A stretch of 28,986 bases of DNA from Corallococcus carmarthensis (GTDB lineage: Bacteria; Myxococcota; Myxococcia; Myxococcales; Myxococcaceae): positions 1-28,986 of the forward strand of contig NZ_RAWE01000122.1 in assembly GCF_003611695.1 (NCBI RefSeq), in the 5' to 3' direction. How positions within the stretch are numbered: position 1 is the stretch's first letter; every line of letters starts with the position of its first letter. The position numbers and the translations under genes were made by a program. The notes below the pieces were generated by a model. That model was not told the DNA's origin. It was given only the letters and a program-made list of their open reading frames with translations, and ran no database searches. Of this stretch, positions 9,886 to 17,301 are shown one piece after another.

Positions 9886-9947
9886 CCGCGCCGGACTGGC
9901 GCGGACACTCGCTCCATTCCGGCGCGGACGGTGTTCCAAACTGGAGC
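9886..9947 (+). repeat. Copy A of a 62-nt structured intergenic element (long imperfect hairpin plus a small hairpin)
   Basis: The sequence is ccgcgccgg-actggcgcggacactcgctccatt-ccggcgcgg, with 9-bp outer arms that are exact reverse complements, followed by gttccaaactggagc. It is about 85% identical to the copy at 17240-17301. It lies 22 nt upstream of ATG 9969 and 85 nt upstream of the divergent MVP start. Confidence 0.75.
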
Positions 9948-9968
9948 GCCTGTTGCGAGGATGGGGCC

Positions 9969-10892
9969 ATGCGTTTCCGGACGGGCAGCGCCCTCTTGCT
10001 TCTGCTCGTTTTCTCGGCCTGCGCCACGACGGAGCCCCTCCCCAAAAAGCCAGCGGCCCGCGGCACGCGGATTTCCAACCTCCAGCGAGCGGCGGAACTC
10101 CCATGGAGGGACGGTGGGCGGTGCGTTGTCCGCGAAGCGTCCCAGCCTTGGCCCGTCCTGGTGGAGCGGTGCTATCAGGCGCTCGACCATGACCGGCTCG
10201 AGTTCCACGACACCGAGGGAAGATGTGCGGTCGCCTCCGCTGGTGCCGCTGCCGTGGGCGTCGGGTTCTGCGTGCTGGCGGCTCCTGAGATCGTGGTGGG
10301 AGCCGTCATCGTCGTGGGCGTGGTGGTGGTCGCCGTCGCCATCCAGGAAGAATGGGACGCATATGAACTCCGCCACCTCTACCCCGAGGAGGCAGGGGCC
10401 GCACGAGGAACGAAGGTCGCGTCCCGAGAAGCTGGAGCGAAGCCAAAGCCCAAGCTGGAACCGGAGCCAGCGGGCCAGGGCAGGCAGCCCCCGGTACCAC
10501 CCGCGCCCGTGGATCGGACGGGCCGCGCCAGCTGCGAGCCTGTTCCCGTGCCTCACGCGGGTAAGGATCGCCTGCATAACGAGTGCGCCGACAAGTTCCC
10601 ACCCAACCGTCATCCCGGGATGGACGTGCTCGTGGGCGGTGTGCTCTTCGATGCGTTGCAAGTCGGCGTACGCAAACTGTGGGAGATCAAGACCCATCAA
10701 TTCGATTCGTACAATGACTTCATCCAGGACAGGGAGATTGAGAAGGAATTGATACAAATAGACAGGGAGCGAAGAGTCGCGGATGCCTGTGGATATGGCT
10801 TCATCATTGGGGTGAGCACCGGGGCGCACAAAGCGGCGCTGGAGGCAGTTGATCCCACGCTCATTATCGTCGTCACAGGGTGTCAACGATGA
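9969..10892 (+). CDS. Lipoprotein, candidate polymorphic-toxin-like protein: lipobox N-terminus, central hydrophobic segment, Pro-rich linker, and a C-terminal domain with a PD-(D/E)xK-like motif (putative nuclease fold). The function is speculative.
   Basis: The start is taken at MRFRTGSALLLLLVFSACATTEP (signal plus lipobox Cys). The C-terminal domain contains GMDVLVGGVLFDALQVGVRKLWEIKT, with a D-x12-E-x-K spacing typical of the restriction-endonuclease fold. The last roughly 400 nt are clearly lower in GC than their surroundings. The stop overlaps the start of the next gene. Confidence 0.45.
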   Translation: MRFRTGSALLLLLVFSACATTEPLPKKPAARGTRISNLQRAAELPWRDGGRCVVREASQPWPVLVERCYQALDHDRLEFHDTEGRCAVASAGAAAVGVGFCVLAAPEIVVGAVIVVGVVVVAVAIQEEWDAYELRHLYPEEAGAARGTKVASREAGAKPKPKLEPEPAGQGRQPPVPPAPVDRTGRASCEPVPVPHAGKDRLHNECADKFPPNRHPGMDVLVGGVLFDALQVGVRKLWEIKTHQFDSYNDFIQDREIEKELIQIDRERRVADACGYGFIIGVSTGAHKAALEAVDPTLIIVVTGCQR

Positions 10893-11644
10893 CTACGCAA
10901 AAAAGACTCACTCTCATTGTCTACGCGCCTGCCCTCACGGTTGACGACAGCCGTACGGTCGCCATCGTCCATGGGATGGAAAAGGCATTCCCCGGCTTAC
11001 GAATGGAGTGGGAAGTAGGCGAAGGCGGGCGCCTTATTGCATTGCCACAGCGCGACGCATGGCTTGTAGCGAATATTGAGGACGGAGGATTCCCTCTCAT
11101 ATGCAATGGGGACGAGAGTTATCCCGTGACGGTCAATGGGAGGGACAGGTCCGGACTTTTCAGTCCCGGCGGTCAGTCCCAGTTTGAAGTTCATGCCAAG
11201 CTGCCACTGGACGAACCCGTGGTCGCGGCAGCGGCGGCTCTGCTTGAGGCCATGGCGGAGGGGGCACGTTCGTTCTGGGGGCACGCGTCACCGTATGGTT
11301 ACGGCTCGGAGGTCGCGCAGCAGTTCCGCCGCTCGCCGGACGGACCCGAGCGTTCACCCCGTGGGCTTCCCATGCTCAACCTTCCTGAGAAAAGCCCCAG
11401 GGTTGAGACTCCCTATTTCCTTGGGTGGCTGAACTATTGGTCCGCGGCTGCCGCGGAGGTCATCGGGTTTCCGGATCCTGCTCGCGATACCGAACTGTTC
11501 ACGCGAGCACGTCGCACTCCGTCAGGCGGGTGGGTCGTGCAGCTCACGGATGCCCCCCTCGACTACGACAACCCCGCCCACCTGGATGCGCTCAAGCGGA
11601 CCTACGAGCGCTTTCCGGAGATCGGCGGCCGCGCGGCACGTTGA
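10880..11644 (+). CDS. Cytoplasmic hypothetical protein, candidate cognate immunity protein of the upstream lipoprotein toxin-like gene
   Basis: The GTG start overlaps the upstream gene by 13 nt, an arrangement consistent with translational coupling. There is no signal peptide. The 5' half shares the same lower-GC composition as the 3' end of the upstream gene. Function is inferred from context only. Confidence 0.4.
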   Translation: MSTMTTQKRLTLIVYAPALTVDDSRTVAIVHGMEKAFPGLRMEWEVGEGGRLIALPQRDAWLVANIEDGGFPLICNGDESYPVTVNGRDRSGLFSPGGQSQFEVHAKLPLDEPVVAAAAALLEAMAEGARSFWGHASPYGYGSEVAQQFRRSPDGPERSPRGLPMLNLPEKSPRVETPYFLGWLNYWSAAAAEVIGFPDPARDTELFTRARRTPSGGWVVQLTDAPLDYDNPAHLDALKRTYERFPEIGGRAAR

Positions 11645-15303: not shown

Positions 15304-16197
15304 CTACCGCGCCTCGAACATGTCAGCGGTCCACTCGTCGGCGCTCAGCCCCGCGCTGAAGCCGTAGGCCGCCGAGACCAGGTCGTAGCCATAGTCCGCG
15401 AAGATGCGGTGGCTGTAGCTGGTCGGGTGGAGCTCATCCCAGAACAGGTACTTGTCCGGGTTGACGTTCTTGCCCTTGCAGGTGCCGGTGACGTTCGTCA
15501 GGCCATACGCGGACGGTGACGCGATGATGGCGTTGAACTGGTTGAAGGCATTCATCCCGATGAACTTCACGGCCGGGAAGTCCGTGCGCAGCTTCGTCAG
15601 CGCCGCCGACCAGCGCGAGTTGAACTCGGTGGTGGGCGGCGAGAGCACGGTCGAACCCAGCCCGAACGGAATGGCCAGGGCCACGGGCGTCTTGTGCAGC
15701 GGCGGCATGTTCACCCAGAGGACATACTTCGCGCCGGCGGCCACCAGCTTGCGGATCTGCCCGTCGATGTTGGACGCGGCCTTCGTGGCGGAGGCCTTGA
15801 TGGCCGCGGAGTCGAACGGGTTCGCCTGGGCCTTGTGGTTGATGTCATTGCCACCGCCCCAAAGGACGTAGAGCGCCGTGGGGGACGCCACGGGGTGGGC
15901 CTGCAGGTAGGCGTTCACCTGGCCCGTCATGTCGCTGGTCTCGGAACCACCCTGGGCGTAGTTCGTCCCGCCCTCGTCGGAGGCCACGAGCGTCAGGCCC
16001 AACTGCTCCGCGAGCTGCTCCACCCACGGCCCGGAGATCTGGCTGGAGGGGTACGTGTTCGGCCCGCTGGTGGCGGTGCTGTACGTGCCGTTGTCACTCA
16101 GGCTGTCGCCAAACGCGATGACGCTGCTCTGCGCGCCCGCGTGCAGCGGCACCAGGGCCACGAGCGCCGCCGCCAGTCCCAGGAGTGAGGACTTCAC
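15304..16197 (-). CDS. Secreted SGNH/GDSL-family esterase/lipase (paralog 1)
   Basis: After the signal peptide comes the GDSL block AFGDSLSDNG, then the WGGGNDI block and the DELHPT (DxxH) block. The GTG start overlaps the TGA of the upstream paralog. Confidence 0.85.
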   Translation of the reverse strand: MKSSLLGLAAALVALVPLHAGAQSSVIAFGDSLSDNGTYSTATSGPNTYPSSQISGPWVEQLAEQLGLTLVASDEGGTNYAQGGSETSDMTGQVNAYLQAHPVASPTALYVLWGGGNDINHKAQANPFDSAAIKASATKAASNIDGQIRKLVAAGAKYVLWVNMPPLHKTPVALAIPFGLGSTVLSPPTTEFNSRWSAALTKLRTDFPAVKFIGMNAFNQFNAIIASPSAYGLTNVTGTCKGKNVNPDKYLFWDELHPTSYSHRIFADYGYDLVSAAYGFSAGLSADEWTADMFEAR

Positions 16198-17105
16198 GGG
16201 AGCACGCCCCCTGCCTCAACGGCCCACGCGTCCGCGGTCCACTCGTCGGCGGTGAACCCCGCGCTGAAGCCAAAGGCCGCCGAGACGAGGTCGTAGCCGT
16301 AGTCCGCGAAGATGCCGTGGGCGTAGCTCGTGGGGTGGATGTCGTCCCAGAACAGGTACTTGTCCGGGTTGACCGCCTTGCCCTTGCTCGTGCCGGTGAC
16401 GTTCGTCAGGCCGTACGCGGACGGCGACGCGATGATGGCGTTGAACTGGTTGTAGGCGTTCATCCCGATGAACTTCACCGTCGGGAAGTCCGTGCGCAGC
16501 TTCGTCAGCGCCGCCGTCCAGCGGGTGTTGAACTCGGCGGTGGGCGGCGCGAGCACCGTGTTGCCCAGACCGAACGGCACGCTCAGCGCCGCGGGCGTCT
16601 TGTTCAAGGGCGGCATGTTCACCCACAGGACGCGCTTCGCGCCCGCGGCCACCAGCTTGCGGATCTGCCCGTCGATGTTGGACACCGCCGTCGTGGCCGC
16701 CGCCTTGATGGCCGCCGAGTCCAACGGGTTCGCCTGCGCCTTGTAGTTGATGTCATTGCCGCCGCCCCAGAGCACATAGAGCGCGGTGGAGGACGCCACG
16801 GGGTGGGCGGACAGGTAGCTGTTCACCTGCGACGTCATGCCGCTGGTGACGGCGCCGCCGCGCGCGTAGTTCGTGCCGCCGTTGTCGGAGGCCGTCAGCG
16901 GCAGGCCCAGCTGCGTGGCCAGCTGCTTCACCCAGGTGCCGGAGATCTGGCTGGAGGGGTTCGTCGTCGGACCGCTGGTGGCGGTGCCGTTGTTGCCGTT
17001 GTCACTGAGGCTGTCACCGAACGCGACGATGGCGCTCTGCGCGTTCGCGTGCAGCGGGAGCAGCACGGCCACCAGGGCCGCGAACAACAGGGAGGCTGAC
17101 TTCAT
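16194..17105 (-). CDS. Secreted SGNH/GDSL-family esterase/lipase (paralog 2)
   Basis: The start is taken at the ATG encoding MKSASLLFAALVAVLLPLHANAQS, with GGAG about 10 nt upstream; the ORF track begins 27 nt earlier at GTG. It shows the AFGDSLSDNG, WGGGNDI and DDIHPT blocks. It is about 75% identical to paralog 1. Confidence 0.85.
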   Translation of the reverse strand: MKSASLLFAALVAVLLPLHANAQSAIVAFGDSLSDNGNNGTATSGPTTNPSSQISGTWVKQLATQLGLPLTASDNGGTNYARGGAVTSGMTSQVNSYLSAHPVASSTALYVLWGGGNDINYKAQANPLDSAAIKAAATTAVSNIDGQIRKLVAAGAKRVLWVNMPPLNKTPAALSVPFGLGNTVLAPPTAEFNTRWTAALTKLRTDFPTVKFIGMNAYNQFNAIIASPSAYGLTNVTGTSKGKAVNPDKYLFWDDIHPTSYAHGIFADYGYDLVSAAFGFSAGFTADEWTADAWAVEAGGVLP

Positions 17106-17239
17106 GGTGGGAGACTCCGAGGGGGGAGACACACGTCGCTACGCAGCGTGTCACAGCTCTCGGAGCTTTCCCATGATTTTCTATTTTTACTTGTTTTGTC
17201 CCAGATATTTCAGCGGCCCCAGCCCCGGGCGGCACGATG

Positions 17240-17301
17240 CCGCGCCGGACTGGAGCGGCCCCTCGCTCCATTCCAGCGCGGGCGATGTTCCAGCCTGGAA
17301 C
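17240..17301 (+). repeat. Copy B of the 62-nt structured intergenic element
   Basis: The sequence is ccgcgccgg-actggagcggcccctcgctccatt-ccagcgcgg followed by gttccagcctggaac, a perfect 6-3-6 palindrome. An unusually AT-rich stretch (17161-17220) precedes it. It lies about 160 nt upstream of ATG 17461 and about 135 nt upstream of the divergent GDSL start. Confidence 0.75.

Follow-up and report, generated by a model that had tools for sequence, protein, structure and literature searches.

Two copies of a short, palindromic repeat on one contig of the myxobacterium Corallococcus carmarthensis raise the question of what this element does, and for which of the genes around it. The window analysed here is the whole of that contig (28,986 nt). 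A first-pass annotation had placed each copy in a divergent promoter region, upstream of a lower-GC and putatively toxin-like gene, and had suggested a shared regulator site, a small RNA (sRNA) or 5'-untranslated region (5'-UTR) element, or a small mobile repeat that had accompanied toxin-like cargo genes. Its estimate of about 85% identity over 62 nt, in the same orientation, is borne out with slightly wider borders: copy A (9886-9949) and copy B (17240-17303) are 64 nt long, directly oriented and identical at 55 of 64 positions (86%), and a 53-nt core of the repeat is recovered by blastn-short at E = 3.5e-11. The reading that we favour, with moderate confidence, is that copy A is the enhancer, or upstream activating sequence (UAS), of a sigma-54-dependent promoter serving a major vault protein (MVP) homologue (758 aa; 7525-9801, minus strand), and that copy B is a promoter-less duplicate of it.

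Promoter motif and dyad sites upstream of the MVP gene

The window was compared with ~140 kb of related DNA beyond it. This included three other Corallococcus MVP loci (L028, L029 and L035, from CA049B, CA054B and C. coralloides, L029 being the C. coralloides locus), a second C. carmarthensis assembly (L030, 99.7% identical overall to the window), a further cassette of the same species with DUF6310, the family of the right neighbour of copy A (L033), two comparison loci for the PLA2-like right neighbour of copy B (L031 from M. fulvus and L034 from a Logan assembly), and seven metagenome MVP contigs, among which the promoter was compared in L036, L037, L038, L039, L041 and L042. MVP proteins of the metagenome loci are 77-86% identical.

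Upstream of the full-length MVP homologue (Pfam MVP_shoulder, Vault, Vault_2, Vault_3 and Vault_4), the minus-strand sequence AGGCACGGGGCTCGCA (9857->9842) forms a sigma-54-type promoter motif. It agrees with TGGCACG-N4-TTGCW at 10 of 12 positions and has the exact GG-N10-GC spacing (GG of the -24 box at 9856-9855, GC of the -12 box at 9844-9843); sites with this 10/12 score number three in 58 kb, the window being read on both strands. The GG lies 55 nt before the MVP ATG (9801), and the predicted transcription start falls near 9831, ~30 nt before that ATG. A box of the form nGGCAyGnGGCTsGCA stands ~55 nt before the MVP start, at a fixed distance, in 11 of 11 MVP loci (the window, L028, L029, L030, L035, L036, L037, L038, L039, L041 and L042), and it is the best-conserved block in the alignment of MVP upstream regions. 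Sigma-54 promoters always require an upstream-bound activator, and copy A, which starts 29 nt upstream of the box, is placed where such a promoter needs its activator-binding sites. Judged from this motif, transcription of MVP is probably sigma-54 dependent, and MVP is the gene predicted to be driven by enhancer and promoter together. Another candidate, a sigma-54-like motif within the element on the minus strand (TGGAACAyCGyCCGCG, 7/12), was rejected, as a 2-nt deletion in relatives breaks its spacing.

The hairpins of the repeat are built from three to four copies of a 13-nt dyad, CCAGAnTGGAGCG, each site being an imperfect CCAG-n-CTGG dyad extended to that motif. Copy A, the core of the predicted MVP enhancer, holds three of them: S1 (9891-9903, plus strand; CCGGACTGGCGCG) in the left arm of hairpin 1, with its centre at 9895 or ~-64 from the predicted start; S2 (9910-9922, minus strand, reading CCGGAATGGAGCG) in the right arm of hairpin 1, centred at 9918 (~-87); and S3 (9936-9948, plus strand; CCAAACTGGAGCG) in hairpin 2, centred at 9940 (~-109). 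A degenerate site, S0 (9865-9877, plus strand; CCGCCCTGGAGCG; centre ~-38), was read from the sequence between the repeat and the -24 box, outside the 64 nt, and an equivalent, CCAGGGCGGAGC, was scored in L028, L029 and L035. The centres of S0 to S3 are 26, 23 and 22 bp apart in the window (20-24 bp in L042), or about two helical turns, so that the sites lie on one face of the DNA. Copy B has S1 (17245-17257), S2 (17264-17276, inverted) and S3 (17290-17302) with the same 23/22-bp spacing; it has no S0, and no sigma-54 promoter is adjacent to it. Orthologues of copy A are present in L028, L029 and L035, and the site clusters at the metagenome MVP loci can be aligned with it as well. Within the element, the block CTCGCTCCA of S2 is conserved best in the alignment of MVP loci.

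Clustering of the dyad next to MVP was also recovered by a word search that made no use of the hairpin reading (9-mers with one mismatch allowed, six non-redundant lineages), in which the top words common to all six lineages were CCAGACTGG and ACTGGAGCG. When CCAGANTGGAGC was sought with at most one mismatch, 17 of its 19 matches in 171 kb lay either within 150 nt upstream of an MVP promoter or inside copy B; its exact matches, six in number, are all upstream of MVP. The dyad is enriched ~100-fold over background. In a non-circular test, for which the consensus was taken from the six window sites only and then applied to five metagenome MVP loci, there were 5 matches in 723 nt of 150-nt upstream windows and 4 in 30.4 kb elsewhere (0.095 expected, Poisson P = 6e-8).

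If copy A is an enhancer, S1 to S3 together with the degenerate S0, ~40-110 bp upstream of the predicted start, would be sites for a dimeric DNA-binding protein. We infer an NtrC-family bacterial enhancer-binding protein (bEBP), which would bind S1 to S3 as dimers, oligomerise, contact sigma-54 RNA polymerase at GG(-24)/GC(-12) and open the MVP promoter. There are precedents in Myxococcus xanthus, whose bEBPs recognise pairs of dyads or half-sites, separated by 5-50 bp, that precede sigma-54 promoters. NmpR occupies two GCGCA-N5-TGCGC dyads separated by 14-15 bp, and the targets of Nla28 are clustered 8-bp half-sites, CT(C/G)CG(C/G)AG, in both cases upstream of TGGCACG-N4-TTGCW promoters (PMC11841059, PMC9765219). 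Myxococcaceae in general encode RpoN and dozens of bEBPs (e.g. PMC9765219). The arrangement at MVP shares with the NmpR and Nla28 UAS its two to four dyad or half-site repeats, tens of bp apart and upstream of a GG-N10-GC promoter, its myxobacterial intergenic setting, and the conservation of the cluster together with the promoter. It differs in the motif itself, for which no matching published myxobacterial bEBP site was found, in proximal sites that are unusually near the promoter, and in the presence of a second copy that has no promoter. Nor do orientations and consensus fit the myxobacterial C-box or 5-bp element, or the MrpC and FruA motifs.

Several observations weigh against the enhancer reading. 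S1 (~-64) and S0 (~-38) are nearer the promoter than the textbook UAS, which lies at -80 to -150, and the -12 box is TCGCA or TGGCA, not TTGCA. No bEBP gene stands next to MVP in any locus examined, and both bEBP binding and MVP transcription from AGGCACGGGGCTCGCA are predicted. In Corallococcus, complementarity between the S1 and S2 arms (CCGCGCCGGAnTGGAGCG) extends to 18-19 nt and so exceeds the 13-nt site, which leaves room for hairpin or cruciform selection or for a recent local inverted duplication. The predefined sites show no significant depletion of A/B differences (5 inside, 4 outside, P = 0.5). Copy B is changed relative to L030 at 2 of 66 aligned positions, one of them in the conserved GCTCCA core, and copy A is unchanged between the same two strains. 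Finally, no GG-N10-GC site scoring at least 8/12 occurs on either strand of 17106-17460, and with no sigma-54 promoter beside it the enhancer model gives copy B no direct function.

Linkage to MVP and the toxin-like neighbours

We assessed which of its neighbours the element is associated with across lineages. The S3-S2-S1 blocks align across MVP lineages, while each lineage has another upstream neighbour of MVP, be it a divergent gene or one for a hybrid histidine kinase, a ring-hydroxylase fragment or an Exo_endo_phos protein. The neighbour is co-directional with MVP in three loci, L036 (with the kinase), L038 and L042 (with Exo_endo_phos), and there the site cluster is wedged between the stop codon and the MVP promoter. 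Since the neighbour varies by lineage and the cluster stays at the MVP promoter, the cluster belongs to MVP. Among the functions first proposed for the element, a shared regulator site is the one that the evidence favours, with the correction that the partner gene is MVP, on the opposite strand, and not a toxin-like gene.

The genes beside the two copies had been named correctly. To the right of copy A is the gene for a DUF6310 lipoprotein (9969-10892, plus strand; DUF6310 domain C-terminal), followed by DUF5953 (10880-11644), with which it would form a toxin/immunity-like cassette, as far as sequence can tell. Copy B has on its left a GDSL lipase gene (16194-17105, minus strand), a tandem paralogue of the gene at 15304-16197, and on its right, 158 nt downstream, a gene for a Cys-rich secreted PLA2G12-like protein (17461-18411, plus strand) with a lipoprotein gene next to it. 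The lower GC content ascribed to the genes beside both copies is likewise found, at 58-62% over the two cargo regions (10.5-11.5 kb and 17-19 kb) against ~70% elsewhere in the window.

The divergent-promoter setting first described holds as far as these neighbours go, but the adjacency of copy A and DUF6310 arises from a deletion. In relatives, a small open reading frame (ORF) for a secreted Cys-rich protein of 74-76 aa and a hairpin lie between the element and DUF6310. C. carmarthensis lacks this ~390-nt segment (junction 9952/9953; counterparts at 9603-9990 in L028, 5868-6255 in L029 and 9612-9990 in L035), and copy A, which ends 20 nt from the DUF6310 ATG, adjoins that gene only because the segment was deleted in this lineage. 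As a separate observation, the junction creates TGGAGCGCCTGTTGCG (9942-9957, plus strand). This sequence is a sigma-54-like box (9/12) that ends 12 nt ahead of the DUF6310 ATG, and it could place DUF6310 under the copy A enhancer as a leaderless transcript.

Neither toxin-like family carries the element with it. DUF6310 is a very large paralogous family (1,039 matches, several copies per genome), and the element is absent from its other cassettes that were compared, namely cassettes 2 and 3 of C. coralloides (L029) and L033; a link to DUF6310/DUF5953 cassettes was rejected on these grounds. The PLA2-like family is rare (11 matches, the nearest homologue being P0123 from Vitiosangium), and a link to it was rejected in the same way, the element being absent at the M. 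fulvus (L031) and Logan (L034) loci. These five loci speak against the idea that the element accompanies toxin-like cargo, and the suggested co-regulation of the two toxin-like genes is unsupported, copy B having no recognisable partner promoter.

Operators on divergent promoters would offer a different account of the same dyads. They would then be bound by a conventional dimeric factor other than a bEBP, a repressor or an activator, that acts on the divergent promoters independently of the sigma-54 promoter or beside it. Its targets might be, for instance, the small Cys-rich ORF or DUF6310 operon in the case of copy A, and the GDSL or PLA2-like genes in that of copy B. Both copies do lie in divergent intergenic regions, the secreted Cys-rich ORF of the relatives starts ~100 nt downstream of the element, and the PLA2-like protein is also Cys-rich and secreted; moreover, a sigma-70-acting factor would not need the sigma-54 promoter that copy B lacks. 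We nevertheless consider this account unlikely. L036, L038 and L042 have no divergent gene and yet keep the site cluster at the MVP promoter, the PLA2-like loci of M. fulvus and Logan and the other DUF6310 cassettes have no motif cluster, and the activator that a sigma-54 promoter must have upstream finds in the dyad the only conserved repeated motif there.

Several further features of this neighbourhood were recorded. The interval from MVP to a 229-aa gene and RdgC is hypervariable (9802-19140 in the window, 9450-11742 in L028, 5579-11741 in L029 and 9459-11742 in L035): CA049B and CA054B each have a single DUF6310/DUF5953 cassette there, C. coralloides has three in tandem, in one of which DUF5953 is truncated, and C. 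carmarthensis has a single cassette together with a 7.5-kb insert. DUF6310/DUF5953 seems to be a large family of polymorphic toxin/immunity type, on which no literature was found. MVP is frameshifted in the sister assembly L030 by 5 nt inserted at window position 9060, reflecting either a pseudogene or an assembly error. On the other side of MVP, an HmuY-like gene (6381-7439, minus strand) contains at least seven tandem 18-nt repeats (7019-7195) that encode a short peptide repeat.

Structured RNA and mobile-repeat explanations

As first described, each copy combines a long interrupted hairpin with a small palindrome, and both fold into two hairpins, one long and one short. Predicted folding energies are -46.7 kcal/mol for copy A (z = -5.3) and -39.7 kcal/mol for copy B (z = -3.5) relative to dinucleotide shuffles. 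Each arm pattern is confined to two sites in the window (chance expectations 0.03 and 0.37), a count reached in 0 of 100 shuffles. The outer stem has 10 perfect pairs in copy A and is interrupted by a C.A mismatch in copy B; the two differences between the copies in hairpin 1 are both pair-breaking, and neither is compensated. A skew of the A/B differences between loops and stems, obtained by a post-hoc split, was discarded because it is gone with the predefined sites (5 inside and 4 outside, P = 0.5).

Such stable hairpins would be expected if the element acted as a structured RNA, a 5'-UTR cis-regulator or an sRNA transcribed from the plus strand toward the secreted-protein genes. Two further details are in keeping with an RNA: a U-A to U.G change is tolerated by hairpin 2, though on the plus strand alone, and the sequence, as read, would allow an attenuator-like alternative in which the right arms of the two hairpins pair with each other. 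The structure itself, however, does not appear to be what has been conserved. The covariation check that had been proposed gave 0 compensatory changes in 26 pairs, with pairing equal to the shuffled control, in a comparison of six closely related Corallococcus sequences that has low power; 6 pairs are broken in some of these sequences by one-sided changes. Hairpin 1 has lost its inner stem in L028 and L029 through changes on the left side only (GAGCG to CATGG), so that just one side is conserved, the CTCGCTCCA block varying in one of the six sequences (copy B of L030). Deep MVP lineages retain the dyads and lack the long hairpin. Conservation of the element thus appears to lie in its sequence and not in its structure.

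Other properties of an RNA are missing as well. An Rfam scan, also proposed at the outset, gave nothing at gathering score, and the best hits of E-value scans, mir-2766 (E = 0.68) and sX4 (E = 0.34), are far below gathering scores. The element has neither a U-tract terminator after it nor a sigma-70 promoter before it, and its distance to the downstream ATG varies between three contexts (20, ~100 and 158 nt). The element thus resembles Rfam leader RNAs and sRNAs in having two stable stem-loops upstream of coding genes, but differs from them in its want of covariation, of an Rfam match and of a terminator, in its variable distance to the start codon, and in a structure that is not conserved where the sequence motif is. 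We consider a functional RNA, whether sRNA or 5'-UTR element, highly improbable. With S1 and S2 mutually inverted and S3 forming a dyad on its own, this DNA will fold into two hairpins as a single strand in any case. The simplest view is that the hairpins arise as a by-product of two inverted sites and one palindromic site.

A small mobile or recombinogenic palindromic repeat, like a repetitive extragenic palindrome (REP), a bacterial interspersed mosaic element (BIME) or a miniature inverted-repeat transposable element (MITE), might also have come to rest at two intergenic sites, its likeness to binding sites being incidental. The element is a ~42-nt imperfect palindrome with a second small palindrome, homology between the copies ends sharply at both borders of the 64 nt with no extended flank homology beyond, and copy B, which must stem from some duplicative process, sits in a lower-GC, strain-specific island. 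Copy number argues otherwise. In place of the hundreds of copies that a generic repeat might show, there are two in the 29-kb window, and an nhmmer profile run over the ~140 kb of related Corallococcus, Myxococcus and metagenome DNA found the element only at the MVP-proximal site of L028, L029 and L035 and at both L030 positions. The exact 19-nt right arm, CTCGCTCCATTCCNGCGCGG, gave 27 single chance matches in unrelated taxa among 185,579 species genomes (one per species), the sole Myxococcaceae match lying inside an Lhr-type helicase ORF. As an exact pattern this query is too strict, and it would miss variants such as the GGTGCG of L028 and L029; the scan still speaks against a high-copy family. 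The 21-nt core CCGGACTGG-N8-CTCGCTCCANTCC had 0 matches in 241 million metagenome records, and the viral collection yielded one chance match.

Neither copy is flanked by a target-site duplication, and no transposase-like ORF was noted among the annotated window genes, among which no search aimed at REP-associated tyrosine transposases (RAYTs) was made. REPs number in the tens to hundreds per genome, are found mainly at 3' ends or in the space between convergent genes, and are associated with RAYT (IS200/IS605-like) transposases. The element shares with REPs and BIMEs its short length (40-65 nt), GC-rich imperfect palindrome, intergenic location and occurrence in more than one copy; unlike them, it has two copies in 5' divergent regions, one of which is orthologously conserved with a promoter. 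With MITEs it has in common inverted repeats, sharp homology boundaries and one copy in an island that appears to be horizontally acquired, but it is shorter than typical MITEs, and neither a target-site duplication nor a related full-length transposon or copy family was found. Since copy A has orthologues of conserved architecture in deep MVP lineages, it does not represent an insertion, and we judge a REP- or MITE-like origin for the element to be very unlikely.

Copy B and its island

Copy B is lodged between the GDSL lipase and PLA2-like genes in a 7.5-kb segment (~11.65-19.14 kb) that encodes LysR, SDR, AKR and NAD-binding proteins, two GDSL lipases, the PLA2-like protein and a lipoprotein, and that is absent from the MVP-to-RdgC interval of CA049B, CA054B and C. 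coralloides. By sequence it appears to be a paralogous duplicate of S1 to S3 only (~64 nt) of the MVP enhancer, and it should bind the same protein as copy A. As it lacks a partner sigma-54 promoter, we do not class it as a functional UAS. It may be either an orphan, decaying copy or a site through which the same regulator modulates neighbouring, probably sigma-70, promoters; any activity of copy B is predicted in the same way as bEBP binding at copy A.

That copy B is a functionless relic is a credible explanation, if one that we hold to be somewhat short of probable. It would be a scar of island assembly, left when illegitimate recombination captured a fragment of the MVP enhancer, and would now be drifting. 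Besides missing a promoter partner, it lies in the intergenic region where the two C. carmarthensis assemblies vary most: of the 61 differences between the window and L030, 9 fall in 17058-17294, compared with 0 in the copy A intergenic region. L030 carries both copies, and its copy B has 2 substitutions, one of which is the change in the GCTCCA core; the A/B differences, which show no depletion in the sites, point the same way. Against a relic, all three copy B sites and their spacing are intact after ~14% divergence. The relic explanation covers copy B only and is compatible with copy A being an enhancer.

The spacer from copy B to the GDSL start (17106-17239) carries 4 of the 61 inter-strain differences (17156, 17171, 17184 and 17186) and an AT-rich tract at ~17170-17215. 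With ~30% GC in a 69% GC genome, the tract might serve as a sigma-70 promoter or a bend site, or be the scar of an insertion. An exact 14-nt repeat, CAGCCCCGGGCGGC, occurs to the left of copy B (17220-17233) and at the right edge of the insert (19142-19155), a match of marginal significance (E = 0.03); its right copy is inside the coding 3' end of the 229-aa gene and is found in L028 at 11743. The repeat may mark a recombination junction or be due to chance. The 7,354-nt spacing of copies A and B was also considered as a sign of att sites or a target duplication. This was rejected: a simple insertion between the copies does not fit the gene order, because relatives already have the order element-DUF6310-DUF5953.

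Other features of the island were noted independently of copy B. At its left edge, a second strong sigma-54-like box, CGGCACGTTGAATGCT (10/12; 11634-11649, plus strand), overlaps the stop codon of DUF5953 and lies 58 nt ahead of the LysR ATG (11707), with no dyad cluster upstream. An isolated palindrome, CCAGACTGGCAC / CCAGTCTGGTGC (15276-15290), resembles the dyad motif and lies where the NAD-binding gene (ending at 15235) and the GDSL gene (ending at 15304) converge; it may be a plain terminator stem. The tandem GDSL paralogues (15304-16197 and 16194-17105, minus strand) share a 300-nt stretch of 90% identity (15322-15621 / 16230-16529), and inter-strain differences cluster within the pair at 15613-16002, which suggests gene conversion between them. 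A gene of ~190 aa follows the PLA2-like gene in three loci (18457-19050, plus strand, in the window; 11173-11748 in L031; 11020-11613 in L034). The window member of this set is a lipoprotein, and its pairing with the PLA2-like gene, judged by position only, suggests an effector/immunity-like pair.

A more active role for copy B, which we regard as doubtful, is that the enhancer module was copied from MVP into the new island and brought that regulator to the GDSL/PLA2-like intergenic region. If so, acquired secreted lipolytic and toxin-like genes would be under the same control as a bacterial vault-protein homologue, and a portable bacterial enhancer module would provide the first functional handle on the co-expression partners of MVP.

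No literature was found on the regulation of bacterial MVP homologues, and a preprint on these homologues does not mention promoters (10.1101/872010). The advance made here is modest: the element itself is an ordinary promoter architecture plus one stray duplicate, and what is new is that a control region with a defined motif has been predicted for bacterial vault-protein homologues for the first time, and that it has an unusual promoter-less copy. Its reclassification removes the suggested ties to toxin co-regulation and mobile repeats. The conserved sigma-54 promoter and dyad enhancer make the regulation of bacterial MVP testable, the prediction being that myxobacterial MVP is switched on by a signal-responsive activator of NtrC type, and the 13-nt motif CCAGAnTGGAGCG offers a handle for finding that activator and its regulon.

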